Assembly: GCA_045641205.1 (NCBI GenBank)
Contig: JAZUGM010000392.1
Location: 2,577 to 66,576 of the forward strand
DNA length: 64,000 nt
DNA from: Thermoguttaceae bacterium
GTDB lineage: Bacteria; Planctomycetota; Planctomycetia; Pirellulales; Thermoguttaceae
Direction: 5' to 3'
Below, one piece after another: positions 15,588 through 53,064 of this stretch; positions within the stretch are counted from its first letter, which is position 1; each line of letters starts with the position of its first letter. A model generated the notes under the pieces. It did no database searches. It was not told where the DNA came from and saw only the letters and a program-made list of their open reading frames with translations. Both the position numbers and the translations under genes were made by a program.

Positions 15588-15748
15588 AAAACGTGACGTC
15601 GATTCCCCCGCGCGTAAGCGCGGGCGCGAAAAGCCGCTCGTTATATACGAGCGGAAAACGTTTGAAACAGTCGTCGCGTTGATTTTTAAATTCAAACGGT
15701 TAAAATATCGGCGCACTTTTGGCGCGGTTAGCCTTTAAAGGAAACAAT

Positions 15749-16807: not shown

Positions 16808-16976
16808 CGTTTCAAAGCGCAGACCTTCTTGAGTAACAAGGAAAATTGGGGAAATTACAGACAAGACGGCAAAACGCCGATAAAGAAAACGAAGGAGCGC
16901 GTAAAAACGCTCGAGGTCGGAAAGTTTAGCCGACTTCAATTAAAACCATCCGCGCCGTCAACAAAGGAAAGCGTTA

Positions 16977-18083: not shown

Positions 18084-18167
18084 CGTCTATTAGTCCATAA
18101 AATTCTCTATACGATTCGCGTTTTGACGCAAAATCAATAAATAAAAAAATATTTATTCTGAAATTAG

Positions 18168-18196
18168 TTGCAACCGTCCCTCGAATATGATATATT
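18168..18196 (+). promoter_or_regulatory. sigma70-like promoter candidate
   Basis: TTGCAA-17 nt-TATATT in an AT-rich spacer about 100 nt upstream of ATG 18298. Confidence 0.35.
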
Positions 18197-18297
18197 CAAG
18201 TTTTCGCGCGAGGGGCGGCGTTTTCCTAAACGCGCGCTTTTCGCGTCTACGTCCTTGCGACAGTATCGTCCTCGTTTTTTCGTATGGAGACTAACTT

Positions 18298-19341
18298 ATG
18301 TCCAAACGCGCGGCAAAATCACACGCCTTTCCGAAGTTGCACAACGCGACTTGGCCTGGAGTCGTCGGCAAAGGCTCAGGCGACGGCGAACCTTGTATTA
18401 GTCTTGTCGAGATGCTCGATCTCACTAAAGGCGCCGACGTCGACGGCGTGAAATTCGACGGGTTCGATCTTTTCCTCGCGCCGCCGCACTTCGATTACGC
18501 GGATCGCGACGCCGAAATCGACAAGATCGTCAAGTATTGTTCCGACTACGGCTTTGAAGTCGGTTCGCTCGTCGCGAACGTTTGGGCGGGCTCCGCAATG
18601 GGCGACGAATCGCAACGCGCGAAATTCTTAGAAGAAGTCGAAAAAGGTTGCGACGTCGGGGCGCGTCTGCGTAAGGCGGGCGTTCGTCCGAACGGCTGCG
18701 TTCGCATCGATTCTTCTTGTTCCGTCGACGCTTGGGCGAAAGACCCTTGCGAAAATACGAAGCAAATCGTCGCGACGTTCAAAAAAGCCTGCGAAATCGC
18801 AATGAAGTACGACGAAATGCTCGCGCTTGAAGGCGAAGTCTGCTGGGGCGGCATGCACAGTTGGAAGCGTTGCGCGCAACTTATGGAAGAAGTCGACTTG
18901 CCGCAAGTTCTCGGGTTTCAAGCCGATATGTCGCACACGAATCTGTTCCTCCTTGGCGCCAACGCGCCCGAAGACAGGCTTCTGCCCGACGACTTCCAGT
19001 GGGGTCAAACGGAAGTTTACGACGAAGCGTACAAGAAAATGACGGATCGTCTGCGTCCTTGGGTCGTCGACTTCCACGTCGCGCAAAACGACGGCACCGT
19101 CTTCGGCTCCGGCGCGCACGACAAAACAGGGCGCCATTGCCTACCGAAAGACCCGAACGGCAAGTTAGACGTCGTAAAATACGCCAAATTCTGGCTTATG
19201 GAAGACGGAACGCCGACGCGTCGCTTCAACCATATTTGCTGGGACGGCTGTATGTTCCCGAACGCGGCAATGAAGAACCCGCAGACTTGGAACGACGTCC
19301 TTGAAACGATGCAAAACGTCCGCGTCGCGTGCGGCTGGTAG
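18298..19341 (+). CDS. sugar phosphate isomerase/epimerase (xylose isomerase-like TIM barrel)
   Basis: 347 aa; overall pattern (KLHNATWPGVVGKG.., GFDLFL.., LALEGEVCWGGMHSW, FHVAQNDG) resembles the AP-endonuclease-2/xylose-isomerase-like TIM family common in Planctomycetes. Confidence 0.7.
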   Translation: MSKRAAKSHAFPKLHNATWPGVVGKGSGDGEPCISLVEMLDLTKGADVDGVKFDGFDLFLAPPHFDYADRDAEIDKIVKYCSDYGFEVGSLVANVWAGSAMGDESQRAKFLEEVEKGCDVGARLRKAGVRPNGCVRIDSSCSVDAWAKDPCENTKQIVATFKKACEIAMKYDEMLALEGEVCWGGMHSWKRCAQLMEEVDLPQVLGFQADMSHTNLFLLGANAPEDRLLPDDFQWGQTEVYDEAYKKMTDRLRPWVVDFHVAQNDGTVFGSGAHDKTGRHCLPKDPNGKLDVVKYAKFWLMEDGTPTRRFNHICWDGCMFPNAAMKNPQTWNDVLETMQNVRVACGW

Positions 19342-21712: not shown

Positions 21713-21817
21713 CGACGCGCGTTCGACTTCGTACTTAAAAGCGTAGTCGCTCGAACGCTCGTCTCGCGCGCGTTCGGGCGATTTTTGTTGAAAAACGTCG
21801 ACTCAAGGAACGTCGTT

Positions 21818-23131
21818 ATGCTTCAAACGTCCTTTGAAAAACGTTCGTTGTTCGAAATTTGCGATTTCAATTTGGAAGAAGACGCGTGGGAACGTCTCGA
21901 CGAAACTTTCGGCGAGACGATGACGCACGACAAATTCTTCACGATTATGCTAATCGACAAATTGACGGCGCAACTTCTTTTCAAATATACGCTCGATCCC
22001 GATCTCCTCGTTCAACTTGACTTGTCGACGCTCGAAATCAAAAGAACGCGAATGCTCGACGCCGAAGGAAAAGAATGCGTCGGGGATTTGTTCTTTACCG
22101 TAAAATTCGTCGATAAGAAAGCGCGAAAAGGACGACGCGCCGTCTTCGCGCTAATTGTCGAACACAAATCGGACGAAGGATTCTATATTTCGATCCAGCT
22201 CTTGGGGTACGTTTGGGCTTGGCTCGATTATATGAAGGATCACAAAGAAGAGTACGCCGACGAAGAAGGACGCTTGCCCGTTCCTTACGCCTTGGTCTTT
22301 TCGCAAGACTGGCGCGAATCGTCCCCAAAATATCTGAACGACGTTACCTTTTGCGCGCCCGGTTGTGAAAACACGGTTCCCAATTTTTGGTATCGTTGCG
22401 TTCGCGTTCGCGATTTGCCGTTCGAGGAAATTCGTCGTTGCGAACCGTTGTTGCAAGGTTTCCTGTATCTGGAACGGCTCGCAAAAAACAAGTCGGTCTC
22501 GCAGGAACAGGAACTTGACGAACTCGCGCAAATTTTCGGCGATTTGTGCGCTATGCAATTAGACGCGCGAATTCGGCGCGGAATCGTCGCTTGCTTTAAT
22601 TATCTCGCGGCTTTGAAAAAATTTCGACCGCAAACGACGACGTTGGGGCAATTAATCAACAAAATCGAAAAAAGAGAGGGCAAACCTATGGACGTTTCGT
22701 TCCTTGAAGAAGCGTTTCCAACGCAACTCAAAGTATACGTGGCAGATTACCAAAAAAAAGCGGAAGAAAAATATGATTTGGTCGTAGAAGAACGCAACCA
22801 AGCGCGAGAAAGAGCGGAAAAAGCGGAAGAAGAACGTAACAAGGTCGTTGAAAAATGTAACAAGGTCGTTGAAGAACGAGACAAGGTCGTTGAAGAACGA
22901 GACAAAGTCGTTGAAAAATGTAACAAGGTCGTTGAAGAACGAGACAGAACCATCCAAAAATTTAAAGAGTACTTATTGGAACAAGTGTCAAAAAAATACG
23001 AAGCCCAGTGTCGTCAAACGTTGACTGCCAAAATCCAGTCTGCCCAATCGCTAGACGCGCTCTTTGATATTCAGAGATTGTTACAACGCTTCAATTCTAT
23101 CGAAGAAATAGAACAAAACCTCGACAATTAA
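21818..23131 (+). CDS. Rpn-family recombination-promoting nuclease / putative transposase (PD-(D/E)xK, Transposase_31-like) with coiled-coil tail
   Basis: THDKFFTIML.., GDLFFTVKF and AVFALIVEHKSDEGFYISIQLLGYVWAWLDY (D...E-H-K) match the YhgA/Rpn core. ATG 21818 has AAGGAA upstream; the start is uncertain (21785 TTG or 21920 ATG also possible). Confidence 0.75.
   Translation: MLQTSFEKRSLFEICDFNLEEDAWERLDETFGETMTHDKFFTIMLIDKLTAQLLFKYTLDPDLLVQLDLSTLEIKRTRMLDAEGKECVGDLFFTVKFVDKKARKGRRAVFALIVEHKSDEGFYISIQLLGYVWAWLDYMKDHKEEYADEEGRLPVPYALVFSQDWRESSPKYLNDVTFCAPGCENTVPNFWYRCVRVRDLPFEEIRRCEPLLQGFLYLERLAKNKSVSQEQELDELAQIFGDLCAMQLDARIRRGIVACFNYLAALKKFRPQTTTLGQLINKIEKREGKPMDVSFLEEAFPTQLKVYVADYQKKAEEKYDLVVEERNQARERAEKAEEERNKVVEKCNKVVEERDKVVEERDKVVEKCNKVVEERDRTIQKFKEYLLEQVSKKYEAQCRQTLTAKIQSAQSLDALFDIQRLLQRFNSIEEIEQNLDN
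22838..22942 (+). repeat. in-frame 21-bp tandem repeat x5 (heptads NKVVEKC/NKVVEER/DKVVEER)
   Basis: aacaaggtcgttgaaaaatgt / aacaaggtcgttgaagaacga / gacaaggtcgttgaagaacga... read directly. The truncated paralogous copy downstream has only one unit. Confidence 0.9.
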
Positions 23132-26902: not shown

Positions 26903-28084
26903 TCAATTCAGACGTTCGACGACGGCAAGTCGCGCGCGAGGATGCGCTTTTTCATAAACGGCGTGCAAAGTCGACGTCGAAACGTGCGCGTATATTTGGG
27001 TCGTGACGACGTTTTTATGACCGAGAAGCTCCTGAATCGAACGAACGTCGGCGCCGGAGTCGAGCAAATGCGTCGCAAAAGAATGGCGCAACGTATGGGG
27101 AGAAACGCGCGAGTCGAGGTTCGTTTGACGCAAATAACCGTCAAGTTTGCGCCCGACGCTCCGAACGTTGAGCGCGCCGCCGTTTTTGTTGAGAAAGACG
27201 GGCTCTTCCAAAAATTCTTCCCATCGACGTCGCGCGTTCGGATCGTTCAACTCTTCGGGCGCGGCAGGCGCAAAACTGGTTTCCCCTCGAAAAATTCCGA
27301 TTTTTTCGAGCGCCGAATCGTCGCTCGATTCGCCAGAATTCTCGAGAACGTCGCGAACGTTGGGAAAGAACGTCGCGACAAAACGACGCGTTTCTCGACA
27401 CGGAGCCGCTATTTCCGCAAAACGCGCTCTGTCGCGTCTTTTGACGACCAAAGAAGATTCGCGCAGGTATTCGCGCGCAAAAAGCAAATATTTTAACAGG
27501 GCGGCGCGCGCGTAAGCGCCAATAAACGCAAAACGTTCCCGCTTGCCCTTCCCTCTAATTTTAAGCAGTTCTTCGTCAAGTAACAAATCGGAAAAGAGAA
27601 GTCCGACGCACTCGCTTACGCGCAACCCGCCCGAATAGAGAATCTCGAGAATCGCGCGATCACGGAGCCCAAGAGGGTCGCAAGGATTCGGCGCGTTCAA
27701 TAATTTGTCGACGTCTTCGGTCGAGAGTACGAGAGGCAACGGTCGACGTCCTCGCGGATTCCGCAAAGCGCGCGCCGGGTTGTCTTGCGCCCACCCCTCT
27801 CGCTCGCCAAATTTAAAAAAACCGCGCAACGAAGCAAGACGACGCGAGATAGTCGCCTTCGAATACGACGCTTCGTTCATTGCAAGAACGTAACCGCGCA
27901 ACTCCGGCGGCGTCGTCGCCCAAGGAAGCGCGCTTTGTCCGTTATGAACCAGCGACTCGTATTCCAACCACGCTTCAAGATCTTCGCCGTAACTCTTGAT
28001 CGTATGTTCGGAATAATTTCGTTCGACTCTAAGATAACGTAAAAACCGCTCGAATAATTCGCGCCATATTTTGTCGTTGTTCAT
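26903..28084 (-). CDS. tyrosine site-specific recombinase, XerC/XerD-like, with a ~85-aa insertion
   Basis: N-terminal SAM-like domain (FLRYLRVERNYSEHTIKSYGEDL). The catalytic domain has RDRAILEILYSGGLRVSECVGL, HTLRHSFATHLL and LGHKNVVTTQIYAHV (R..H-x-x-R..H..Y). 393 aa, versus about 300 for a typical Xer. Confidence 0.85.
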   Translation of the reverse strand: MNNDKIWRELFERFLRYLRVERNYSEHTIKSYGEDLEAWLEYESLVHNGQSALPWATTPPELRGYVLAMNEASYSKATISRRLASLRGFFKFGEREGWAQDNPARALRNPRGRRPLPLVLSTEDVDKLLNAPNPCDPLGLRDRAILEILYSGGLRVSECVGLLFSDLLLDEELLKIRGKGKRERFAFIGAYARAALLKYLLFAREYLRESSLVVKRRDRARFAEIAAPCRETRRFVATFFPNVRDVLENSGESSDDSALEKIGIFRGETSFAPAAPEELNDPNARRRWEEFLEEPVFLNKNGGALNVRSVGRKLDGYLRQTNLDSRVSPHTLRHSFATHLLDSGADVRSIQELLGHKNVVTTQIYAHVSTSTLHAVYEKAHPRARLAVVERLN

Positions 28085-30442: not shown

Positions 30443-30880
30443 TTAATACGCCTCGCTAGAATCGTCGTTTAACGCAAACCCTGAAACGTTCGAAGATTCG
30501 GCGGTCGCATTGAAAGACGCCTGACGTGCGACGTAACGAGAATCGGAATCGATCGCGGTGGGAATTTGCGTCGCCGTTTGCGACGAAGCAAGTTGAGTCG
30601 ATTCCATTACGCTGGAAGAGACGGCGGAGCCGCCAAACTCGCTTGCCGAGTAGTATTCGACGCTTCCGCCGCCGCAGGACTCGCAATAGCCGTTCGCGTT
30701 GGAAGAACGATCCATACCGCCAAGAATCGACCCGCAACGATACAATTCGCCCATACACTGATCGCCGCGCTCGGGCAAAAAGGTCGGCTGACAACAATCG
30801 TAAGGCGCCAAACAAGCGCGACAACCGACGAAACCAACGGCAAACGCCATTACTACTGCCATTACGATTCTACGCGTCAT
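30443..30880 (-). CDS. small secreted / lipoprotein-like Cys-containing hypothetical protein
   Basis: ATG 30880 with ACGGAG upstream; MTRRIVMAVVMAFAVGFVGC looks like a signal with a lipobox. Followed by a Cys-rich segment and a Ser/Thr-rich tail. Stop abuts the tadA start region. Confidence 0.5.
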   Translation of the reverse strand: MTRRIVMAVVMAFAVGFVGCRACLAPYDCCQPTFLPERGDQCMGELYRCGSILGGMDRSSNANGYCESCGGGSVEYYSASEFGGSAVSSSVMESTQLASSQTATQIPTAIDSDSRYVARQASFNATAESSNVSGFALNDDSSEAY

Positions 30881-31205
30881 TGCAAACGCTCCGTTTCTCT
30901 TTTGATTCTTACGCTTCAAATGATTCTCTGACGCTCTTCGCGCGTCGCTCTATATCCTATTGTCGGCAAATTTTTCAGAATATTTAGAAAAATCAGAAAA
31001 TTTTAACATTTTCATTAAAAACGTTCTCACGTTTGAACGCGAGCAGATTCTAAAAAGAGAAAAACAATGGCGCGATCGACAAGAGCTTAATGCCTTTCGA
31101 CGCCGTTTAACTTGCGCGTTTCGGTAATAATTAGAATAAACCTTTCCAACGCTCTATCTTTTTTGACAGATTAAAAAAAATATTCTTAAGAAATATAAAA
31201 AAAAC

Positions 31206-31439: not shown

Positions 31440-34400
31440 ATGGCTAAAAATGAAACCGTATGGGGCGTCGACGTAGGCAATACGTCGTTGAAGGCGATAC
31501 GTTGTCGAAAAGGCGCTGATCCGGGAAGTTTAGAAGTTCTAAACTTTGACTATATTGAGCATAGTAAAATTTTGTCGCAGCCGGGCGCCGACGCCGACGA
31601 AATTTTTGCGGAAACGCTCAAGTTGTTTCTGTCGCGTAACAATATCAAAGGCGAAAAGGTCGCGATTTCCGTTTCCGGGCAAAACGCCTTATGGCGTTAC
31701 CAGCCGTTGCCGCCGATCGATCCGAAAAAAGTGCCCGAATTAATCAAATATGAAGTCAAACAATGGCTTCCCTTCGACTTACAAGACGTGATCTGGGACT
31801 ATCGTCAAGTCGGAGGAACGATCGAGGGCGGAATCGCGCTCGACCTCTTCATCTTTATGTACGCGATGAAACGCGAGACGGCCAAGCGAACCTTGGAACG
31901 TTACGCCGCGTCGAACGTCGACGTCGATTGCGTTCAAGGGGCGCAAGTCGCGTTGTACAATTCGTTCGTTCACGATATGTACGACTACGAAGCCTTGCTC
32001 GAACGCGACATTAATGAGCTAAACGATTTCGACGTTATTTTAAACGTAGGAACGGACGCGACGGAAATTGTCGTTACGAACGGCGTCGCCGTATGGTTGC
32101 GCAACATACCCGTCGGCGGTAATCTCTTCACGAAGGCGTTGACAAAATCGCTCAAATTAACCTTCTCTAACGCGGAACACATCAAACGCAACGCCGGCGC
32201 GGCTCAAGATCCTAAAGCCGTTATTTTGGCGATGAAACCCGTCTTCAACGATATGTTGACGGAAATCGACCGTTCCATCAAATATTATTGCAGTCTCAAT
32301 AAAAAGGCGAAGATTCGTCGTATTTACGCGCTTGGCAACGCGATGAAATTGCCCGGTCTGCGCCAATTCTTGTCGAAGAGTTTAGGATTAGACGTCGTCG
32401 TTCCAACTTCCTTTGCCAAATTACGCGGCGAAGAGACGCTTTCTAACAATCTTTTCAAAGACAACGCGTCCGCGTTTGGCGTCGCCTACGGGCTTGCGCT
32501 CCAGCTCTTAGGCGAAGCGCCGTTGAGTATCAACTTAGTTCCGCGCGACATAGTTCAGCAACGTCTCATAGAACAAAACAAGCCGTGGGCGCTTGCCGCC
32601 GCTTCGATTTTGGGGCTTGGACTGACCGTTCAATACCTTTCGACAACGTCCACTTATAACGTCGTGCAAAATCCCGCCTTGGATTCCGCGCAAAAACAAG
32701 CGGAATCCGTCGCGTCTAAATCGAAAGACCTTATTGCAAAAGCGACTGCCGCAGTTACCGAATTTAAGAAATTCGACGATATCGGTTCGAATTTGACAAG
32801 CGGAGTCGAAGGACGTCTCACGTGGATGGAATTGCTTAAGGCGATTAATTCAGTCATTCCTGCTGAAGCGCCAAATAAAGCGATTCTTGAGGACGGCGTG
32901 TCCCCAATGAAGGTTCGCGAGATCAAAAAACAGAACCGAATTTATATTAACAATATTGAAGTCCAAGAAGTCGAAGACCTGAGCGAATGGTTTGAATTGG
33001 TTCGACGTTGGTACTATATCGACGACCTTGAAGCTCAAGCGTTCGCGACGGACGCCGAAGGAAATCCGCTCGAAGCGCCTGCTGACGCGACCGCAAACGC
33101 GACCGATGAAACAAAGTCGACTCCGGCGACGGCTGAGAGCGACGCCGCTTCCGACGCCGCGTCTGATTCTGATTCCGCTACAAACGACGCTTCTGACGCC
33201 GCTTCCGATGCGTCCTCGACGGATCAAAAGTCTTCTTCCACGTCGGGAAATTCTTCTAGTTCTTCCAGCGCGTCCGAGTCGGGCGAATATGTCCCCAAAT
33301 ACACGTTGGAGCAAATGTTCCCCTTCGTTCCCGCCGCTGAAACTAAGGGCGGATCCGGCTCGAGTAGTTCTAGTTCGTCAAAATCAAGTTCCTCGAGTTC
33401 TTCTTCGAAGTCCTCAAGTTCCTCCTCTTCGAAATCCTCAAGTTCGAGTTCCAAGTCCTCGTCTAGTTCTTCATCGTCTAGTTCTTCTTCGAAGGGCGGT
33501 TCCGATTTGGCGGCGTTCGACGAATTTACCGAAGGCGACGACAAGCGACTTGCCGAGATTCCCGGTCCTTCCGGCGCCGGTCGAATAGTTCAGTTGACCG
33601 GCTACCATTACCACAACCCGGACGACGTCAACGATCCTTCCAGAGGCGCCGAATATATTCGTCGTACTATTCTCTATAATCTCAAGCACGGCGAAATCGA
33701 TTTGCCCATCAGTTTAGAGCGACAACGCGCGGGCGAAACCGGCGTCGACCATCTCACGCTCAAAGAAATGGGAATTTACTTCCCCGTTATGGTCGATCCG
33801 AAAGTTATCGACGAACGTTTTAGACTCCTCGACCCGGAAGCGGCTGCTGAAGCTCGTAAAGAACTCTTAAAGTCGATGATCAAAACGCAACCGGGAAAGG
33901 CAGGCGGGGTCAATCGTCAAAACGGAGGAATGATGGGCGCGGGCGGCGTCGGCGGAACCGGCGGAGGCATGGGCGCGGGAATGACTTCCGGTATGGGGTC
34001 GGGTATGTCGGGCGGAATGTCGGGCGGAATGTCGGGCGGCGCCTCAAGAGGCGGTATGGGCGGCGGTATGAGTTCTATGAACAACCAAATCGCCAACCAA
34101 CTTAGCGACGACCAAGTTTTGAATTTAGCTCGTTACGATTTTACCATTCAATTCGTGTGGATGGAAACGCCTCCAAGCGATCGCGACGCGCGACGTAAAG
34201 CCGCCGAAGAGGAAGCCGCGAAAGCGTCCGAATCTTCAGAGGCAGGCGCCGACGGTTCCGCGAATACGACCGAACCCGCGACAACGGACGACGACGCAAA
34301 CGAGACTGCGTTGGGCGAAGACGCCAATGTAGCGGAAACGACCGCACCGGCTGATGACGCCAACGCGACGGAAGCGACCGACTCGACCGAAGACGCCAAC

Positions 34401-34460
34401 GCGAATGCGACGACCAACGACGCCAATGCGACGGAGTCTGCGGAGCCCGCCGCGCCGTAA
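31440..34460 (+). CDS. PilM-PilN fusion protein (GspL-like architecture) with Ser/Lys linker, Gly/Met tract and acidic tail (protein A)
   Basis: The first 360 aa have the actin/FtsA-like PilM fold (VWGVDVGNTSLKAIRC, ILNVGTDATEIVVTNG, IPVGGNLFTKAL, IYALGNAMKLPGLRQFL). The PilN signature SINLVPRD (32529-32543) and the TM helix PWALAAASILGLGLTV follow. The remaining ~600 aa are extracytoplasmic and include low-complexity tracts. Confidence 0.8.
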   Translation: MAKNETVWGVDVGNTSLKAIRCRKGADPGSLEVLNFDYIEHSKILSQPGADADEIFAETLKLFLSRNNIKGEKVAISVSGQNALWRYQPLPPIDPKKVPELIKYEVKQWLPFDLQDVIWDYRQVGGTIEGGIALDLFIFMYAMKRETAKRTLERYAASNVDVDCVQGAQVALYNSFVHDMYDYEALLERDINELNDFDVILNVGTDATEIVVTNGVAVWLRNIPVGGNLFTKALTKSLKLTFSNAEHIKRNAGAAQDPKAVILAMKPVFNDMLTEIDRSIKYYCSLNKKAKIRRIYALGNAMKLPGLRQFLSKSLGLDVVVPTSFAKLRGEETLSNNLFKDNASAFGVAYGLALQLLGEAPLSINLVPRDIVQQRLIEQNKPWALAAASILGLGLTVQYLSTTSTYNVVQNPALDSAQKQAESVASKSKDLIAKATAAVTEFKKFDDIGSNLTSGVEGRLTWMELLKAINSVIPAEAPNKAILEDGVSPMKVREIKKQNRIYINNIEVQEVEDLSEWFELVRRWYYIDDLEAQAFATDAEGNPLEAPADATANATDETKSTPATAESDAASDAASDSDSATNDASDAASDASSTDQKSSSTSGNSSSSSSASESGEYVPKYTLEQMFPFVPAAETKGGSGSSSSSSSKSSSSSSSSKSSSSSSSKSSSSSSKSSSSSSSSSSSSKGGSDLAAFDEFTEGDDKRLAEIPGPSGAGRIVQLTGYHYHNPDDVNDPSRGAEYIRRTILYNLKHGEIDLPISLERQRAGETGVDHLTLKEMGIYFPVMVDPKVIDERFRLLDPEAAAEARKELLKSMIKTQPGKAGGVNRQNGGMMGAGGVGGTGGGMGAGMTSGMGSGMSGGMSGGMSGGASRGGMGGGMSSMNNQIANQLSDDQVLNLARYDFTIQFVWMETPPSDRDARRKAAEEEAAKASESSEAGADGSANTTEPATTDDDANETALGEDANVAETTAPADDANATEATDSTEDANANATTNDANATESAEPAAP
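33354..33494 (+). repeat. Ser/Lys low-complexity coding tract
   Basis: SGSSSSSSSKSSSSSSSSKSSSSSSSKSSSSSSKSSSSSSSSSSSSK, encoded by mixed Ser codons (agt/tct/tcg/tcc/tca). Confidence 0.9.
33921..34079 (+). repeat. Gly/Met-rich low-complexity tract (A1)
   Basis: NGGMMGAGGVGGTGGGMGAGMTSGMGSGMSGGMSGGMSGGASRGGMGGGMSSM. Confidence 0.9.
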
Positions 34461-34784
34461 GCGTTTCGCGTGCGGCAGATTTAGTCGCGTCTTGAGCCGC
34501 GTCGTCGTACGCTTGAATTTAACGTATGGCTAAAATGGATGATAAAGCGCGCGTCGAAACGTCGCGCGCAACCGTATAAAACGTTCGTAAGAGCGTTTCC
34601 CTTTGTTCGACTTCCGATAGAACAATCCTCGTCGTTTCGGAATTGAAGCGTCGAGACCGTTTGAAACAGTTCGATTTAGTTCGGATTTTTTCCTACCGTT
34701 TTCCGCAAAGTTCCGAGCGGTTCCCTAGTCGACTCGTAGCAAGCGCCGCGCGCGCGTCGTCGTTGGGATATAAAGGTGAAAAGA

Positions 34785-37370
34785 ATGGCAAAAGCTAAAG
34801 GCAGTTTTAAGCCGGAAGATCTGAAAAGATATTATTTTTGGATCGTCCTACCGTTGATTCTTATACTTACGTTCGTCTTTTTCTTTCTCGCGAAAGGAAA
34901 GATCAAGAAGGCTTACGTTGAAAAGACGAGCGCCATTACGGCGGCCAAAGGCGAAGTCGACACGATCGCCGGCAATAAGAAACATCCAAACGACAATACT
35001 ATCAAAGCGATCAAAGCGGAAACTGCCGTGTTGGCAAACAGCGTGTACGGCGCTTGGGAACTGATGTACGGCGATCAAAAGTTGCGAAACCGTTGGCCTC
35101 GTCAGTTGTCGAACGAATTTCTTGACTTAGTCGAAAACAAATTGAAGTTTCGCGATCCGATCGGCGTCGGCAACCCGCATATGCTCGAAGACTACGGACT
35201 CTTCATTGCAAATCACCTTCCCGATCTGCTGAAGGAGATGAATCGTCGTCGCGTTCAAGTTCGCGAATACAAGTTGCTCAAGAAGAAGGAAATGAGTCAA
35301 CTTGGAATCACTGGTATGGAAGAACAATTCTGGCCGGTGTACGTCTATCAGGACGACAAAGGCGTTCAGCATCTGTATCTTGCGATCTACGCGAATCCTA
35401 AGGATGAAAAATCTGCCGTTAAAAGCGTATATCAATACGAAATCGATCTGACCAATCCCAATAATTCGTTGGTTACGAATTTTGACGACAGCGCTTTACG
35501 CGACAAATTGATAGCGAAAGAGCCGGAGCCGTATTACAGAGAAGTCGATCCTTGGATTATGGATCCGAAATCGATGATTATGTTCGGTATGGAATCGAAC
35601 GATATGCAGGGAATTATGCAAGCGATCAACGGAACCGAAGGCGGCGCGGGCGCGATGGGCGGTTCAATGGGCGGTTCAATGGGCGGCGCGATGGGCGGTT
35701 CCGGCGGCGCGCGCGGTTCGATGGGCGGCTCAAGCGCCGAAGGTATGAGCGGCGGAATGGGCGGAGGTATGGGAATGGGAATTTCTTCCATTCCCGGCGA
35801 CGGTTACGATCCTGCGGAAGACCAAATTTCCGGCTCCGATCTTGAAGCTCTTGCAGGAGGCGGAATGACCGGCGGCGTCGGCGGAGGTCGTATGGGCGGC
35901 GGAGCAACCGGTAGCGGAATGACCGGAGGTATGGGCGGCGGCTCGCGCGGCGGCGCTATGTCCGGCGGTATGGGCGGTTCGCGTGGCGGAGCTATGTCCG
36001 GAGGTATGGGCGGCTCGCGCGGCGGAATGTCCGGCGGTATGGGCGGGGATTCGATGGGTATGGGCGGTTCCACCAACATTGAAGACCCGAGTTGGTCGGT
36101 CAAGAAGTACCCTGGACTTCCTCCCTATAAGGAGCGTCGACGCGTCGTTGGAAACGTCGATTGGATCGATCCCGAAATTTACGCGTTGCCGACTTGGGAT
36201 TCCCAAGCCAATCCGACTTCTATTGAAGTTTGGTACGCGCAAGAAACTTTGTGGGTTTTCGAAGCCTTGATTCGCGTTGTTGCCGAGACTAATAGGGACT
36301 ACGTAGACAATCTCGCAAAAGCGCCCGTGAAATGCGTCGAACAGATGCTTATCGGGCAAGACGCGGCCGTTGAATTTACTACTTTGACGCAAACTATCGG
36401 CGATTTAACGGGTAAGTCGGCGACTGCAAACGCTATGGGATCAGATTCCTCAATGTCGTCTTCAATGGGCTCGGGTTCGGGTTCAGGTTCGGGGTCTGGC
36501 TCCGGCGGTATGATGGGCGGCGAAATGGGACTTGCGTTGACGGGTTCGGCGGAAATGCAAGCGGGTACGAAAATTCTCTTCGGTCGATATATCGGAGAAG
36601 ACAATAAGCCTTTAAAATCTGACGACAAGCCGCCTTTTGCTGAATTTAACAAGATGCCGGTCTGTTTGAAGGTCGTTATCGACCAACGACGTATTCCAGA
36701 TTTACTTGTCAGTTGCGCCAACTGTTCAATGCCGATCGACGTCAAACACATTCGTATTTGCCCGGACAACAACGTGCCTTTCGTGATGCCGATTCCTTTG
36801 GAAAATATGGCTTCCGACGCTAGCGGCGGTATGGGCGGCGCAATGATGGGCGGCGGTATGATGGGCGGCTCAATGATGGGCGGCGGAATGGGCGGAGGCA
36901 TGGGCGGTTCCGGTTCCGGGGAAAACGGAAACGCACGCGGAGCTATGGGCGCCGATTCGATGGGAATGGGCGGCGGCGTCGAAATTGGACGTTCCGAATT
37001 AGGTCAATCCGAGTACGGAGTCGACGCCATTCGCGTCGAAATATACGGCGTAATCAACATCTTTAACGAACCGAACAAAGAGAACTTTGCGACGGGTTCT
37101 TCCGCAGAAGAAGCGGACGCCGAGTCGCAAGCCATTCTTTCCGGGGTCGGCGCGACGGACGCCGCCGCCGATTCAGAAAACGCGCCTGCGGCAGACGATC
37201 AAAGCGCCGCGCCTGCGACGAACGATCAAAACGCCGCGCCTGCGGCAGACGATCAAAGCGCCGCGCCTGCGACAAACGATCAAAACGCCGCGCCTGCGGC
37301 AAACGATCAAAACGCCGCGCCTGCGGTAGACGATCAAAACGCCGCGCCTGCGGCACACGACGCGGCTTGA
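34785..37370 (+). CDS. large single-pass membrane protein with four Gly/Met tracts and a C-terminal 9-aa tandem repeat (protein B)
   Basis: ATG 34785 (AAGGTG 6 nt upstream; GTG 34776 also possible). MAKAKGSFKPEDLKRYYFWIVLPLILILTFVFFFLA is a basic N-terminus plus one TM helix. 861 aa, no family recognised. Confidence 0.8.
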   Translation: MAKAKGSFKPEDLKRYYFWIVLPLILILTFVFFFLAKGKIKKAYVEKTSAITAAKGEVDTIAGNKKHPNDNTIKAIKAETAVLANSVYGAWELMYGDQKLRNRWPRQLSNEFLDLVENKLKFRDPIGVGNPHMLEDYGLFIANHLPDLLKEMNRRRVQVREYKLLKKKEMSQLGITGMEEQFWPVYVYQDDKGVQHLYLAIYANPKDEKSAVKSVYQYEIDLTNPNNSLVTNFDDSALRDKLIAKEPEPYYREVDPWIMDPKSMIMFGMESNDMQGIMQAINGTEGGAGAMGGSMGGSMGGAMGGSGGARGSMGGSSAEGMSGGMGGGMGMGISSIPGDGYDPAEDQISGSDLEALAGGGMTGGVGGGRMGGGATGSGMTGGMGGGSRGGAMSGGMGGSRGGAMSGGMGGSRGGMSGGMGGDSMGMGGSTNIEDPSWSVKKYPGLPPYKERRRVVGNVDWIDPEIYALPTWDSQANPTSIEVWYAQETLWVFEALIRVVAETNRDYVDNLAKAPVKCVEQMLIGQDAAVEFTTLTQTIGDLTGKSATANAMGSDSSMSSSMGSGSGSGSGSGSGGMMGGEMGLALTGSAEMQAGTKILFGRYIGEDNKPLKSDDKPPFAEFNKMPVCLKVVIDQRRIPDLLVSCANCSMPIDVKHIRICPDNNVPFVMPIPLENMASDASGGMGGAMMGGGMMGGSMMGGGMGGGMGGSGSGENGNARGAMGADSMGMGGGVEIGRSELGQSEYGVDAIRVEIYGVINIFNEPNKENFATGSSAEEADAESQAILSGVGATDAAADSENAPAADDQSAAPATNDQNAAPAADDQSAAPATNDQNAAPAANDQNAAPAVDDQNAAPAAHDAA
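35640..35780 (+). repeat. Gly/Met-rich tract (B1)
   Basis: GGAGAMGGSMGGSMGGAMGGSGGARGSMGGSSAEGMSGGMGGGMGMG. Confidence 0.9.
35856..36071 (+). repeat. Gly/Met-rich tract (B2) with a thrice-repeated GGSRGG(A)MSGGMGG unit
   Basis: GGGMTGGVGGGRMGGGATGSGMTGGMGGGSRGGAMSGGMGGSRGGAMSGGMGGSRGGMSGGMGGDSMGMGGS. The DNA units differ by synonymous changes. Confidence 0.9.
36435..36530 (+). repeat. Ser/Gly/Met tract (B3)
   Basis: MGSDSSMSSSMGSGSGSGSGSGSGGMMGGEMG. Confidence 0.9.
36822..36977 (+). repeat. Gly/Met-rich tract (B4)
   Basis: SGGMGGAMMGGGMMGGSMMGGGMGGGMGGSGSGENGNARGAMGADSMGMGGG. Confidence 0.9.
37182..37367 (+). repeat. 27-bp in-frame tandem repeat, ~6.9 copies (APA[A/T][D/N]DQ[S/N]A)
   Basis: gcgcctgcgNNNNNNgatcaaaRcgcc units. 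Units 1-2 are repeated exactly as units 3-4 (54-bp higher-order repeat). Forms the C-terminus of protein B. Confidence 0.9.
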
Positions 37371-37469
37371 CGCGCCGAGACGTTCCGCGAACGTTTCGCA
37401 ATATTCGAAACGTTCGCTATCGACTGTTCGAAATAGTTTAAGAAGCAAATAAGAGCAATAGAGGACGCC

Positions 37470-39503
37470 ATGTGCGCGAAAGCTAAAGAAGATAAAGAAG
37501 CCAAAGCCGCGAAGAAAGCAGCGGCAAAGGAAGAAAAAGCCGCGAAAGCTAAAGCAAAAGCGAAGCCGAAGAAAAAAGCCTCGACGGGAACGGAAGACTA
37601 TAATTTCTTTCTTTTACACGGGGAAAAGATCGGTATTGCCGTCGCGCTGTTAGTTTTTGCGGGACTCGTCGCTTCCGGTAGCGGATTGGATAAATTTACG
37701 TTGACCCCGGAACAGATTAATAGTTCGTCGAGTTCAGCCGAGACGACGATTAAAGACAGCAAGGTTACGCCAAAAGAATACGACGAAGGTGTCGTCGTCT
37801 ATCCTTTTGATTCTTATGCCGAGCTTATTAAGAGCAACGTTAAAGTCAATTCTTATGAAACTGCGACTCGTTGGGAACAATCGTTGTTTCCAGATAAGAT
37901 CAAACGTCCGAACGTCGTTCCGCTCCCGCTTGAAAATTTACGCGCCGTCGCTTGCGTTGGCGCTATTATGTACAACGCGATTTCCGCGAACGGCGCCGCT
38001 AACGCCGGAGGAGGAATGGGCGGCGGTATGGGCGCCGGAGGAGCCGGAGCAGGCGGCATGGGCGGTGGTATGACGGGCGGTATGGGAGGCGCGTCCGGCG
38101 AATTAAAGGGACGCCACTGGATTACCCTTACGGGTTCGATTCCGATTCGCAAACAGCAACTTGCATACAACGAACTGTTTGGCAACGCTCAATATACGGA
38201 TGATCAACGCGACCAGCCTCGTTATATTTACTTTACGTTGGAACGCGGTATAGTTGATCCGACGGGCAAAACCGATTGGAAAAAGGTCGACGTTATCGGC
38301 GCGATTCAAAAAGAGAATCAATACTGGTCGGGGGTTGGTTCCGACCAAGTTGGTTATAACTATATGGCGCCCACGTGGTCTTCTTTCCCGCCGATGGCGA
38401 TGAGCTGTCCGCCGATGGCAAACAAGCCTTTCGGCGAGGAAGTCGCCAACTTGCCCAATATTCCTTTGAGTTCAACCGAACAGATCGACGTGCAAGCGTC
38501 CGACGTCAAGGAATGGAACGAACTGCAAGAAGCGATGAAAAAGTTCGACGAGTCCGATCTTCTCAGTCGCAATCCGTTTGCGGACGTCTCTATGGGCGGC
38601 GGAGCGGGTATGGCGGGAGGTATGTCCGGCGGAATGGGCATGGCTGGCGGAATGGGTATGGTTGGCGGCGGTATGATGGGCTCTGGAATGGAAACCGGCG
38701 GCGGAATGGGTATGTCGGGCGGCGCGACCGGCGGCGCGGTCGGAGGAAATTCCTGGCTTGTCAATCAAGACGCTATCAACGAGTCTCGTATGAAGATTCA
38801 ACAAGCGGCTTCCGTCGATTACTATCTTTTCCGATATTTTGACTTTGAAGTCGAACCAGACAAAACGTACGTTTATCGCGTTAAATTGATATTGGGCAAT
38901 CCGAACTACGGAGTTGACGAACATTTTGTCGAAGATCCGTCGACTTTGGACAAAACGTTCGTCGAGTCTGAATTCAGCGCGCCGTCCAATCCGGTTGCGT
39001 TGGGAGCGATTTCTCGCGTTCTGGCGGAAAACGTCGAAGCTTCTTCCAGACCGGGAGCGGAACCTCGTATTACGCTTTCTTCCGTCTATTTTGACGAAGA
39101 AGACGCGTCCGAATCGATTATTCAAGGTCAAAACCTCAAACGCGGACAAGTCGCCAACTTCTACAGCCAAAAGCACGACGCCGTGTCCGTTGCCGGAGGA
39201 CGATCTTCCGCTTCGATGTACGACGCTATGGGTATGGGATCGGCAGGTTCCAAGAAAGGCGGCAAACCTAAGAACAAGTCGGTCAATCATATTTCGAACG
39301 TATGCGTCGTCGACGCCTTAGGCGGAGCTAAGATATCCGGCGTTACGTTGCGCTCGCCCGGCAAGGTGTTGTTCCTCGAACCGAACGGACTACTCCAAAT
39401 TCGTGAAGTTAAAGAAGACGCAAGAGAGTTGGGACGTTACGACAATTCCGCCGGAGCTATGGGAATGGGAATGGGAACGGGCGCCGCAGGAATGATGATG
39501 TAG
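37470..39503 (+). CDS. large single-pass membrane protein with Lys/Ala-rich cytoplasmic head and three Gly/Met tracts (protein C)
   Basis: GAGGA 5 nt upstream of the ATG. MCAKAKEDKEAKAAKKAAAKEEKAAKAKAKAKPKKK is followed by the TM helix IGIAVALLVFAGLVASG. 677 aa ending in ..GAMGMGMGTGAAGMMM. No family recognised. Confidence 0.8.
   Translation: MCAKAKEDKEAKAAKKAAAKEEKAAKAKAKAKPKKKASTGTEDYNFFLLHGEKIGIAVALLVFAGLVASGSGLDKFTLTPEQINSSSSSAETTIKDSKVTPKEYDEGVVVYPFDSYAELIKSNVKVNSYETATRWEQSLFPDKIKRPNVVPLPLENLRAVACVGAIMYNAISANGAANAGGGMGGGMGAGGAGAGGMGGGMTGGMGGASGELKGRHWITLTGSIPIRKQQLAYNELFGNAQYTDDQRDQPRYIYFTLERGIVDPTGKTDWKKVDVIGAIQKENQYWSGVGSDQVGYNYMAPTWSSFPPMAMSCPPMANKPFGEEVANLPNIPLSSTEQIDVQASDVKEWNELQEAMKKFDESDLLSRNPFADVSMGGGAGMAGGMSGGMGMAGGMGMVGGGMMGSGMETGGGMGMSGGATGGAVGGNSWLVNQDAINESRMKIQQAASVDYYLFRYFDFEVEPDKTYVYRVKLILGNPNYGVDEHFVEDPSTLDKTFVESEFSAPSNPVALGAISRVLAENVEASSRPGAEPRITLSSVYFDEEDASESIIQGQNLKRGQVANFYSQKHDAVSVAGGRSSASMYDAMGMGSAGSKKGGKPKNKSVNHISNVCVVDALGGAKISGVTLRSPGKVLFLEPNGLLQIREVKEDARELGRYDNSAGAMGMGMGTGAAGMMM
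38001..38099 (+). repeat. Gly/Met-rich tract (C1)
   Basis: NAGGGMGGGMGAGGAGAGGMGGGMTGGMGGASG. Confidence 0.9.
38589..38747 (+). repeat. Gly/Met-rich tract (C2)
   Basis: SMGGGAGMAGGMSGGMGMAGGMGMVGGGMMGSGMETGGGMGMSGGATGGAVGG (12 Met in 53 residues). Confidence 0.9.
39450..39500 (+). repeat. Gly/Met-rich C-terminal tail (C3)
   Basis: AGAMGMGMGTGAAGMMM followed directly by the stop codon; formally like the (GGM)n-M tail of GroEL. Confidence 0.9.
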
Positions 39504-50519: not shown

Positions 50520-52931
50520 TTATTCGACTTGCCACGAATAGACGCGCACGCCAAAGCGTTCAAAACGATCGATCAACGCGCCTTTTTGTAGTTCGGGCTT
50601 TGGAAGTTCTTTCTCGTCGAATAATCTTTCAAACGCGTTGAAACAATACTCGCGCGGAAAATCCAAACGAACGACGCAAGGCTTAGGCGACGAATTGACG
50701 GCGATCGCGTAAATTTTGTCGTCCCTTCGCTTGAGCGCAACGACAACCGAATCGTCCCCCAAAGGATTGCGTTTTTCCCCTTCCAAAACGGCAACGCGCG
50801 GCTGTTCCTTCTCGTCGGTCGGTTCCAATAGGACGGGCGAGAAATCTCGAATCTGCCGAACGACATTAGAAAGATCGCGCCAACCTTCGGGCGAACAAAT
50901 CGCGCCGTATTCCTTCTGATTCTCTTCTTCCTCTTGCGTTCCGCAATAATAAAACCACGTTACGCCGTTTCCGCCCGACGCAAGAGCGGCAAAAGCCGAG
51001 GCGCGCAACTCTTGATAAGTCATATAACGAGAAGTTCCCCATCCCTTATACATCTGCAGAATCGGCCAAATAGCTTTCGGTCCGTCCTTGGCGTCTATCG
51101 CGTCGACGCGACAACGTTTGACGTCCTTTACGACGCGCGCGACAATAGCGTCGTCGAAATTCGGATCGCGTCCGCTAAGAGGATAGATTTCCGGCAAAAA
51201 CGCGGTTGTCCCGGTCGCGTATCGACGATAATTCGAAACGACGCGATCAGAATCGACGCAATCGGCTTGAACCGTCAGACGGGTAGGATCGACCGCTTCC
51301 ATTGAATAACGATAGTCGTCCAACTGAGATTTCGTCGTATTGCAAGCAGTGTCGTCGCCAAGATACCACGCAATAATAATCGGCAAATAACGTTCGACGT
51401 CGACGATTTGCTCGTCGGGAAAACGAATCGGCGACCAGATTTTAAACCCGTATTTTTCCGCCGCGTCGAAAAATTCTTCCGAACGCGAACCGAAATAAGA
51501 ATGAGCAAAATTAAAGCCCGCTTCTTGGAGCTGTTGGAACGCGACGTCAAAGCTATTTTGGTTATACTTGCGTTTTGTTACGCCGTAAATTCCGATCGGA
51601 AAGAAGGGCTCGCCGTCGATCAACGTCGTTCCGTCCTCGCGAAGGGTTATTTGGGGCGTCTTAGTTTCGTCGCCAATGAGAAAATATCGCGTGGACAAAA
51701 CGGAATTGCCAAGACCGTCGACGGCTTGAATCGTAACTTTGTGCAAGCCTTCTTCAAATTCTCGTTCCGAGGTCGTCGCCAACCAACGCGCGCCCGACTC
51801 CTGTTCTTGAAGTTCAAAATTGGCGGTCTCGTCTACGTCGTCGATCGTAAATCGCAGGTCGTTCGGATCAATAAAGGAACGATCGCGAATCTCGACGCAT
51901 AAAGGAGCCGCGCCGCGAGACGGCTTCGCCCGCGTCCCGACGATGCGAATAAAAGGCGGCTCGTACTCGTCCCCGACCTTCCAACCGCTCGTTTCTCGTC
52001 CGTCGATAGTCAGCGAACGAAACGAAGGCGTCCCGCAACCGTCGGAATTCATCAGAACGCGAAAACGAACGTAGCGCGCGTCAATTTCAAAAGGCTCTTC
52101 GTAAAACGTTTGCGTCGTTCCGTCGACTCCGACAAAATCGGAAAAAGAATCGAATCCGCGTTCAAGACTATCCGCCGTCGCAACTTGAATTTTCACCGAA
52201 CAGCCTTGCGGAACTTCCGCATCCCATACGACTTTACCGCCGCATAACACGCCCGTTGTGAAAGACCCCGACTTGCAATACGGCTTGTCGGCGTCGATTC
52301 CTTCCAACGTTACGGAATGAACGACGATCCGATCGCCCTGCGCAAAGTCGGGTATGTCGAATCCGACGTTCAGCGTATAAAAAGCGGCGTCCTCCGGCGT
52401 TAGACCATAAAGAACAATTTCGCCGATTTGAGGTTCGGCATAAAACCAAAAGGGCGTCGATTCGATCATTTTTTCCGATCGATCAAACCATTCGACGGCG
52501 CCGCGCCAAGGGCGCTTGTCGGTCGCGGATTCGTCCGCGCGTTTTGAACCCGACGTTACCGCGCGCAACGCGTACTCGCGTCCGACAAGCTCGGGCTCGA
52601 CGGGTCGTTTTTCCGTCCCGACGTTCCAAGCCGTAATATAGTCTTCAGGATCGTCAGGATTCAACGGGGTCGTTCTCGAAACGACAAGCGCGGAACGTCC
52701 TTCGACTTCTTTATTGAACTCAATATTAAGGACGCCTCGATAATTGACGACGGTCGGCCAAACGCTTGGATCGTCGAAACGGTCGGCAAAAACGATTTCG
52801 CCCGACTTGCCTAATTGAGCGACGCCGTCGGGAAAATCGACTTTGTCGACGTTGTAGATATCCGCGCCAAAAGCGACCGACGAAAAAGCAAGACCCCAAA
52901 AGAATAAAAACAAGCGTCGACAAAAACGCAT
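50520..52931 (-). CDS. secreted protein with glycoside-hydrolase-like TIM-barrel region (family not assigned)
   Basis: Start moved to ATG 52931 (MRFCRRLFLFFWGLAFSSVAFG signal). GEPFFPIGIYGV...LQEAGFNFAHSY...IIAWYLGDD resembles GH42/GHL-type barrels. The N-terminal half is beta-sandwich-like. Confidence 0.5.
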   Translation of the reverse strand: MRFCRRLFLFFWGLAFSSVAFGADIYNVDKVDFPDGVAQLGKSGEIVFADRFDDPSVWPTVVNYRGVLNIEFNKEVEGRSALVVSRTTPLNPDDPEDYITAWNVGTEKRPVEPELVGREYALRAVTSGSKRADESATDKRPWRGAVEWFDRSEKMIESTPFWFYAEPQIGEIVLYGLTPEDAAFYTLNVGFDIPDFAQGDRIVVHSVTLEGIDADKPYCKSGSFTTGVLCGGKVVWDAEVPQGCSVKIQVATADSLERGFDSFSDFVGVDGTTQTFYEEPFEIDARYVRFRVLMNSDGCGTPSFRSLTIDGRETSGWKVGDEYEPPFIRIVGTRAKPSRGAAPLCVEIRDRSFIDPNDLRFTIDDVDETANFELQEQESGARWLATTSEREFEEGLHKVTIQAVDGLGNSVLSTRYFLIGDETKTPQITLREDGTTLIDGEPFFPIGIYGVTKRKYNQNSFDVAFQQLQEAGFNFAHSYFGSRSEEFFDAAEKYGFKIWSPIRFPDEQIVDVERYLPIIIAWYLGDDTACNTTKSQLDDYRYSMEAVDPTRLTVQADCVDSDRVVSNYRRYATGTTAFLPEIYPLSGRDPNFDDAIVARVVKDVKRCRVDAIDAKDGPKAIWPILQMYKGWGTSRYMTYQELRASAFAALASGGNGVTWFYYCGTQEEEENQKEYGAICSPEGWRDLSNVVRQIRDFSPVLLEPTDEKEQPRVAVLEGEKRNPLGDDSVVVALKRRDDKIYAIAVNSSPKPCVVRLDFPREYCFNAFERLFDEKELPKPELQKGALIDRFERFGVRVYSWQVE

Positions 52932-53064
52932 AGTCGCAACCTTTCTTGTCTTATAATTGTTCGTTACGCGACGATTAAAAAAACGCCAACGATCAATAAG
53001 AACCGTTGGCGTCAATTCGCCGAAGAAAACCCGACTCTAGCTCAAACGACTCAAACGTAGCGCG

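Follow-up and report, generated by a model that had tools for sequence, protein, structure and literature searches.

Gly/Met-rich loops in the probable scaffold of a planctomycete type IV pilus-like, secretin-coupled machine

Three adjacent membrane proteins and their Gly/Met tracts

The window analyzed here is a 64,000-nucleotide stretch of contig JAZUGM010000392.1 (positions 2,577 to 66,576 of the forward strand) from a Thermoguttaceae bacterium (Planctomycetota; Pirellulales; assembly GCA_045641205.1). Its subject is a set of three neighboring, co-directional genes, here called A (31440-34460; 1006 amino acids, aa), B (34776-37370; 864 aa, with a GTG start), and C (37470-39503; 677 aa), which together encode eight tracts of Gly-Gly-Met repeats (G/M tracts) and are read below as the scaffold of a putative pilus-like machine. 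All three genes and the features described within them lie on the + strand, and coordinates are those of the window.

A tract was defined by a 12-aa sliding window holding at least 66% Gly plus Met, with at least 2 Met and at least 4 Gly. The tract of A (33918-34085; aa 827-882) is a loop that immediately precedes the last conserved strand, YDFTIQFVW. In B, loop T1 comprises two halves, 35637-35792 (aa 288-339) and 35859-36074 (aa 362-433), the second of which is the longest G/M tract and an interdomain linker. Loop T2 of B (36435-36539; aa 554-588) is Ser/Gly-rich and then G/M-rich, the tract criterion placing the tract itself at 36480-36539, and loop T3 (36816-36980; aa 681-735) holds a tract between predicted strands 654-661 and 751-763. 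In C, the T1 tract (37995-38102; aa 176-211) falls within the hairpin predicted for beta-strands 155-168 and 211-224, the T2 tract (38586-38738; aa 373-423) joins the N-terminal part to the beta-sandwich part, and the T3 tract is a C-terminal tail (39447-39500) that ends in AGMMM; an ending in MMM or MM is seen again in distant orthologues. The end of C is the only C-terminal tail, and the other seven tracts are internal: in the A tract, B-T3, and C-T1 the chain loops out of a domain and back into it, and B-T1 and C-T2 connect domains.

Translation of the open reading frames (ORFs) yields, in frame and in place, every peptide quoted for the eight tracts in the preliminary description of this DNA, which was made from the sequence alone. 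Tract residues number 56 in A, 192 in B, and 105 in C, vs. means of 0.03, 3.9, and 0.6 when each protein's own residues were permuted 500 times. The proposed restriction of the tracts to this locus also holds, in that a six-frame scan of the whole 64 kb at the tract criterion finds them in A, B, and C alone, and a more lenient scan of the 42 non-overlapping ORFs of the window likewise finds none beyond these three; the weaker G/M patches that had been described elsewhere in the window are not seen at the thresholds of the tract scans. The tracts are essentially free of His and Cys, as read from the sequence, and MxxM and MxM spacings are plentiful within them. A query with the 203-aa concatenated tracts against an index of 5.8 billion proteins returned none of 8,000 scored candidates at an expectation value (E) of 0.001, because composition correction strips such matches.

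Gene A matches Pfam PilM_2 (PF11104; 3.9e-28) over aa 9-355, and this PilM actin-like ATPase domain (31464-32504) is cytoplasmic by homology. It also matches the NCBIfam Amuc_1101 family (NF045709; 2.4e-53) over aa 36-475, that is, past the PilM domain and through the membrane anchor, scoring 181.9 bits and so falling far below the equivalog cutoff of 650; the match to TIGR01175 pilM (1.4e-34; 119.7 bits) is slightly under the curated cutoff of 133. Against the PDB, the best match is Myxococcus PilM (3jc8; 5e-26). The PilM domain is followed by an INLVPR motif (aa 364-369) and an inferred membrane anchor (aa 384-402; motif and anchor together at 32529-32645), where the hydropathy maximum of 1.38 marks the only hydrophobic segment beyond the PilM domain. 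An INLxPR or INLLPxR motif plus one transmembrane helix is what we take to be the signature of a PilN N-terminus. Because the PilM domain is followed by this motif and a hydrophobic segment, the sequence identifies A as a PilM-PilN-type fusion, the last 600 residues of which would be periplasmic. No Pfam or NCBIfam match was found for this periplasmic part, the sub-domains of which were scanned to E 10. Other low-complexity inserts of A, at 33020-33510 and 34150-34460, comprise an acidic Asp/Ala/Ser stretch, some 80 residues of poly-Ser with interspersed Lys, and, at the C-terminus, an acidic tail of Ala, Thr, Asn, and Asp; in orthologues of A the same sites have inserts of other composition (for example Ser/Lys, Gly/Lys/Ala, or Thr/Pro).

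Gene B encodes a bitopic protein, with a Lys/Arg-rich N-terminus before one strongly hydrophobic helix at approximately aa 20-40 (34833-34895). It has no Pfam or NCBIfam match, and sub-domain Pfam scans to E 10 also gave nothing relevant. AlphaFold2, together with the family alignment, predicts folded blocks with a predicted local distance difference test score (pLDDT) above 90 and a predicted template-modeling score (pTM) of 0.67, separated by segments of low confidence (pLDDT <50) at aa 289-333, 363-436, 554-583, and 680-734 that coincide with the tracts. In Foldseek comparisons with the PDB, the most probable matches of B are the Amuc_1100 crystal structures 6lad, 6kny, and 6laf (probability at most 0.77), followed by PilO (3jc8_O and 2rjz), all at non-significant E (0.5-6). 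Alignment by hhalign of the B profile, with and without the tract columns, to Amuc_1100 gave no signal, which is a weak negative, since the template was a single sequence. PDB sequence and profile searches with B and C found only synthetic Gly-rich linkers and the GroEL tail, at non-significant E. A beta-rich insert domain of B (35250-35550; aa ~158-258, with predicted strands within 159-256) is present in the gut and rumen Thermoguttaceae clade only and not in more distant orthologues (alignment columns 190-290). The C-terminal tail of B contains a 27-nt tandem repeat in 6.7 copies at 89% identity (37181-37360), encoding 9-aa units of the form APA-A/T-N/D-DQ-N/S-A; the tails of its orthologues are unrelated and either acidic or Pro-rich.

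The C protein consists of a Lys/Ala-rich cytoplasmic N-terminus, one anchor at approximately aa 54-72 (37629-37685) preceded by Lys/Arg-rich sequence, a periplasmic alpha/beta part, and beta-sandwich domains. The first ~40 residues (37470-37590) are nearly all Lys, Ala, and Glu (AKAKEDKEAKAAKKAAAKEEKAAKAKAKAKPKKKAS) and form a helix in the AlphaFold2 model. Like B, C has no Pfam or NCBIfam match, with sub-domains scanned to E 10, and Foldseek returned generic tandem beta-sandwiches only (Fab and FN3 folds; E >0.03). The folded blocks are again predicted at pLDDT above 90 (pTM 0.64), and the low-confidence segments (pLDDT <50; aa 173-206, 377-435, and 661-677) coincide with the tracts. Accordingly, the tracts, with their Gly-Gly-Met repeat composition, are predicted to be disordered in both modeled proteins. 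In all three proteins the tracts lie C-terminal to the single membrane anchor identified from hydropathy, as had been proposed, and this side is inferred to be the periplasm.

Related loci and variation of the loops

A scan of one genome per species, using two tract-independent peptide patterns from the folded part of B (taken from a nine-sequence alignment), recovered 79 related loci, nearly all from records titled Planctomycetota. These belong to Thermoguttaceae, Pirellulales, and "Planctomycetaceae" metagenome-assembled genomes (MAGs) from gut, rumen, termite, and environmental samples; the one exception (L015) is titled Paratractidigestivibacter sp. The closest related locus (L011) has 93% identity to the window. 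The order A-B-C is kept almost everywhere in the planctomycete loci. In Bremerella sp. P1 and several MAGs (loci L001, L068, and L072), C is followed on its 3' side by a secretin gene of 1,250-1,360 aa, matching Pfam Secretin at 1e-20 to 1e-22 and carrying tetratricopeptide repeat (TPR) or STN domains, and similar-sized genes follow C in five further loci. Upstream of A in the window is an ORF on the opposite strand (30443-30919) with no Pfam match. A promoter and terminator scan gave counts that were not above chance.

The exhaustive profile search shows the B family to be very large, comprising 3,633 clusters (50% identity) at E of at most 1e-3 and 2,671 at E of at most 1e-10. Our first homologue search was enriched for tract carriers, as its word index favors shared G/M words. 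Of the 135 new representatives taken from the exhaustive profile search, 105 carry one or more tracts and the other 30 are tract-free. The idea that the tracts are universal is rejected, since approximately 22-25% of orthologues are tract-free in tract-independent scans.

Across the window and the related loci (1.2 Mb; 717 ORFs), tracts were found in 58 of 77 B, 35 of 55 C, and 28 of 58 A orthologues, vs. 7 of 527 other ORFs. These seven are two Rhodopirellula genes at the C position (L002 and L003; one and the same protein), a secreted protein of locus L006, and four genes following C that carry short patches. Tract load is correlated among the three proteins (Spearman coefficients, kinship ignored, of 0.88 for B and C, n = 42; 0.67 for B and A; and 0.66 for A and C), and it is nested in the order B > C > A.

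The L006 protein (17736-19208 of that locus), encoded a few kb 3' of A-B-C in a rumen relative, is a 491-aa secreted protein with a helical-repeat-like appearance and two G/M tracts of its own. It has homologues in L056 (~16827-17636) and L041 (1-423), no Pfam match, and no homologue in the window, and is a candidate additional partner of the machine. The genes that follow C in L064 (14381-18130), L068 (12413-16159), L069 (14439-18323), and L072 (4464-8504) encode proteins of 1,250-1,350 aa with short Gly/Phe/Met/Pro patches, such as GGGGFGGGMMGSPL and MPMGFGPGG, that lie upstream of the Secretin domain where this is confirmed (L068 and L072); those of L064 and L069 are taken as secretins from size and position. 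In termite-gut planctomycete MAGs, a gene of ~370 aa is inserted between B and C (L042, 11675-12790; L044, 5086-6168; L050, 4451-5587); its product has a repetitive coiled segment (LEGRLEGR) and is by appearance a candidate YhgA/Rpn-type transposase-like protein.

In alignments of B, loops T1, T2, and T3 separate conserved blocks in all orthologues, and C has three such fixed insertion sites and A one, which bears out the expectation that tract positions would be conserved even where tract sequences are not. For 66 B orthologues from the tract-independent scan, loops were delimited by conserved anchor residues rather than by composition. Total loop length in these proteins ranges from 68 to 315 aa, with the window near the top at 282, and median Met is 11.4% in the loops vs. 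2.3% in the core. Met reaches at least 10% of loop residues in 41 of the 66 and is below 5% in 16, and the Met fraction increases with loop length (rho 0.64). Met-rich loops are low in Lys and Arg (2% vs. 7%); Met-poor loops are shorter, more charged, and rich in Gly, Ser, and Thr. Substitution of Met by aromatic residues in the Met-poor orthologues was ruled out, as Phe, Tyr, and Trp together make up 2.4% in both groups.

The loop of A measures 13-119 aa in orthologues and is, by lineage, G/M-rich, of the form MPGMMPG, Gly/Phe-rich (G/F; GGGFGGGFGGGF), or Ala/Pro-rich, with G/F repeats confined to the A loop of some lineages. The loops of C orthologues are G/M-rich, rich in Gly, Ser, Thr, and Asn, or rich in Pro, Gly, and Tyr (YPGMP), and many distant C proteins end in MMM. 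Tracts occur in marine aerobes and gut anaerobes alike, with the largest expansions in gut and rumen anaerobes.

At the DNA level, the tracts contain tandem repeats that are short and mostly imperfect: a perfect 12-nt repeat in 2.9 copies in the A tract (34005-34039), a 36-nt repeat in 3.1 copies in the second half of B-T1 (35937-36046), and repeats of 15/30 nt in B-T3 (36823-36907). Relative to the 93% relative, the tracts differ mainly by in-frame insertions and deletions (gap fraction 10-15% vs. 0-2% in the cores of B and C), and substitutions in the tracts are not elevated. The preliminary description had argued from varied Gly codons that the tracts are not fresh slippage products. Gly codon usage in the tracts does mirror that of the remaining genome, but short tandem repeats are present, and the argument is right only in part: slippage is clearly the ongoing mutational mechanism. 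The associated claim of selection at the protein level, as opposed to a one-off slippage event, agrees with the Met content of the B loops given above. The tracts are elements of fixed position and slippage-driven turnover, with a G/M-rich, charge-poor composition, that are specific to the scaffold proteins and coordinated among them.

Identity of the scaffold and role of the loops

We regard it as highly probable that A, B, and C are the scaffold, in the inner membrane and the periplasm, of a secretin-coupled planctomycete machine resembling a type IV pilus, with B at the PilO position and C at the PilP position, because a giant secretin gene follows the same trio in related genomes. The A-B-C system is, on this reading, distantly related to the PilM/N/O/P-PilQ alignment complex (Myxococcus xanthus; PDB 3JC8) and works like it. 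Shared features are the actin-like PilM domain, the INLxPR motif with a single anchor, two further bitopic proteins encoded next and then a secretin in relatives, and the presence of PilO among the non-significant fold matches of B. Unlike the Myxococcus complex, however, the PilM and PilN-like parts are here in one chain; B and C are 3-4 times the size of PilO and PilP, with no match to the PilN, PilO, or PilP families; C bears a membrane anchor in place of a lipoprotein signal; and the secretins of the relatives measure 1,250-1,360 aa and carry TPR repeats. We know of no long G/M-rich disordered loops in classical PilN/O/P periplasmic domains.

The nearest studied relative is the MUL2 system of Akkermansia muciniphila (Amuc_1098-1102), which comprises the secretin Amuc_1098, Amuc_1099, Amuc_1100, the PilM-like Amuc_1101, and the pilin-like Amuc_1102. 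Protein A matches the Amuc_1101 model beyond the PilM domain, the gene order in relatives (PilM, two further genes, secretin) is the same, and the Amuc_1100 crystals are the most probable, though non-significant, fold match of B. Moreover, the last strand of Amuc_1100 (sequence checked against PDB 6LAD) is preceded by a low-complexity loop rich in Ala and Pro, which we infer to correspond to the loops of B. By its score, A is a relative rather than a member of the Amuc_1101 equivalog; furthermore, the B profile has no sequence match to Amuc_1100, the organisms belong to different phyla, the loops described here are G/M-rich and several-fold longer, and the window scans show no pilin-like gene adjoining A. 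MUL2 has been described as a PilM protein, two uncharacterized proteins, a pilin-like protein, and a secretin-type channel (PMC13174399), and is reported to be needed for mucin uptake and utilization (PMC12418764, PMC13174399).

For the loops themselves, we propose that G/M sequence has entered the periplasmic domains at a small number of permissive sites, where it would lengthen and shorten by in-frame slippage while selection keeps Gly and Met. Scaffolds of this kind would assemble as multi-copy rings beneath the secretin. Joint expansion in three subunits, the predominance of loops that return to their domain, and ring assembly together suggest that the tracts act collectively, as a flexible, uncharged, weakly cohesive brush or mesh of methionine bristles that would line or fill the periplasmic cage under the secretin. 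Such a lining might seal the cage, cushion or guide a fiber or cargo, or hold hydrophobic pilin segments. The interdomain loops B-T1 and C-T2 would additionally give the distal domains slack across an enlarged and variable planctomycete periplasm, an enlargement noted in PMC11958385. The role of the loops as a collective lining or tether is put forward tentatively, and to the whole explanation, scaffold identity and loop function combined, we assign a probability of roughly 40%.

A bolder form of this proposal, by analogy with FG-nucleoporins, is that the co-expanding loops constitute a cohesive selective phase in the periplasmic cage of the secretin machine, and that this machine may lie behind the pilus- or fiber-associated macromolecule uptake described for bacteria of the Planctomycetota-Verrucomicrobiota-Chlamydiota (PVC) group; we consider it unlikely. 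The shared concept is that of multi-copy, uncharged, disordered chains, with hydrophobic stickers and flexible spacers, on a ring scaffold around a conduit. The preliminary description had suggested a Met-rich meshwork that might serve as a selective phase, a holdase surface, or a metal or redox sponge. The co-varying tract load of the three proteins is compatible with a meshwork, and this, with the G/F variants of some orthologues, bears indirectly on self-association of the repeats. The likeness is pure analogy, however: the stickers are Met rather than Phe, and both cohesion and a conduit-facing position are hypothetical here.

Other Gly/Met-rich sequences are known from chaperones. The C-terminal (GGM)n tails of GroEL project into the confined chamber of a ring oligomer (PMC11978752), and the tracts share with GroEL/Hsp60 tails the Gly-Gly-Met units and the disordered, uncharged chain, C ending in GMMM and GroEL in GGMM. 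The initial label "GroEL-tail-like" is apt for composition, but A, B, and C have no Cpn60 domain, the proteins are periplasmic rather than cytoplasmic, and the tracts, apart from the end of C, are internal loops of 20-72 residues (up to ~190 per chain in B) and not a tail of 13 residues; the resemblance is a compositional analogy and not homology. The G/F and G/M regions of the yeast class B J-domain protein Sis1, for which the term "G/M-rich" is in use (PMC11722011), share Gly-rich disorder dotted with Met or Phe, and some A orthologues carry GGGFGGGFGGGF at the site of the G/M loop of the window. Sis1, though, assists chaperones in the cytosol and is unrelated to this locus in structure or in genomic context. 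In full-text literature, G/M-rich regions were found only for chaperonin tails and Sis1-type J-proteins, with none for pilus scaffolds or planctomycetes. The G/M loops of the planctomycete pilus-like scaffold are real and conserved, and apparently undescribed.

Several observations weigh against the proposed explanation. The 64-kb window encodes no secretin, and no pilin gene turned up in the window scans, although no search aimed at pilins was made. Gene position and weak matches of predicted folds make the PilO/Amuc_1100-like reading of B and the PilP-like reading of C only suggestive. About a quarter of orthologues are tract-free, and in some the loops are down to 4-20 residues; any function can therefore be lost, or taken over by polar Gly/Ser loops, and the tracts are accessory, a minority of lineages doing without them. 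Finally, the co-variation among A, B, and C could come from a habit of the whole lineage, for example in slippage or in the supply of amino acids, rather than from functional coupling.

The strongest alternative is that the tracts are plain flexible linkers whose composition is irrelevant, Gly and Met being a by-product of near-neutral slippage of GGC/GGA/GGT-ATG micro-repeats. The existence of tract-free orthologues, with Gly/Ser/Thr-, Pro/Gly/Tyr-, or Ala/Pro-rich loops instead, keeps this alternative strong, and it is further favored by loop lengths that run at one site from a few residues to more than 150, by the short tandem DNA repeats and indel-dominated divergence, and by the other low-complexity inserts that A, B, and C bear (poly-Ser/Lys, acidic tails, and the 9-aa repeat). 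Yet Met makes up 11-27% of unalignable loops in Rhodopirellula, Bremerella, and gut Thermoguttaceae, vs. ~2% in the folded parts; neighboring genes over 1.2 Mb of related DNA are almost never biased likewise; and Met enrichment grows with loop length and is coordinated across three different proteins. Judged from sequence, the 5- to 10-fold enrichment of a single-codon amino acid over deep divergence, only in these proteins, argues against pure neutrality. We consider the linker explanation possible but somewhat doubtful.

It is improbable that the tracts are periplasmic Met clusters for Cu(I) or Ag(I), acting as a metal buffer or sensor on the machine. MGGM gives the MxxM spacing of "Mets motifs," and like the Cu(I)/Ag(I) sites of CopA, PcoA, CueO, CusF, and CopC, the tracts are periplasmic and Met-dense, with abundant MxxM and MxM spacings. 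Some orthologues have Met/Asp-rich versions, such as GMGMDGMGMDGMGMDMGM, which resemble the Met/Asp/His-rich loops of copper-resistance proteins. Against this, no cupredoxin, CusF, CopC, or other metal-binding fold was found in A, B, or C (Pfam, NCBIfam, and sub-domain scans), His and Cys are essentially missing from the tracts, and there are no copper- or silver-resistance genes in the window or the conserved neighborhood, the context being that of a pilus/secretin scaffold; MxxM spacing also occurs in GroEL tails, where no metal role is known. A sacrificial redox buffer or switch, in which Met scavenges oxidants or its sulfoxide alters cohesion, is the least probable explanation: the tracts are dense in Met facing the periplasm and occur in aerobic marine Pirellulales, and Met-rich low-complexity domains of eukaryotes change cohesion on Met oxidation, but it is anaerobes of gut and rumen that show the biggest expansions, the window and the 79 related loci (partly examined) show no linked gene for an Msr-type reductase, and confinement to a single machine speaks against antioxidant duty of a general kind.

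Other genes of the window and significance of the scaffold family

Elsewhere in the window, positions 12801-16807 encode a fused restriction-modification enzyme of the MmeI type (type IIL), complete in its five MmeI domains, followed by a gene for a YhcG PD-(D/E)XK nuclease. A YhgA-like Transposase_31 protein and a tyrosine recombinase of the phage-integrase family (21785-23131 and 26903-28084, - strand) are encoded less than 5 kb apart, a pair that hints at mobile DNA. On the - strand at 50520-55512, two adjoining genes encode proteins of ~820 aa, one of which matches the hydrazine-synthase alpha middle domain (PF18582; 8.6e-24), the other having no family match.

The scaffold family to which A, B, and C belong is very large and essentially uncharacterized, and it stands at the heart of PVC-type pilus/secretin machines, of which the Akkermansia relative is required for mucin utilization and gut colonization. 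If the loops were mere linkers, their description would still mark out, in three unannotated protein families, where domains end and where insertions are tolerated. If the bolder selective-phase reading were right, the loops would be the bacterial equivalent, built on Met, of the permeability barrier of the nuclear pore or of the floor of the GroEL chamber. If they act as the collective lining proposed here, the conserved, co-evolving, Met-rich, disordered periplasmic layer would be an element of design new to machines that span the envelope. The loops would then offer a rare second natural setting, beyond chaperonin tails and the G/M regions of J-proteins, for the function of a Gly-Met polymer.

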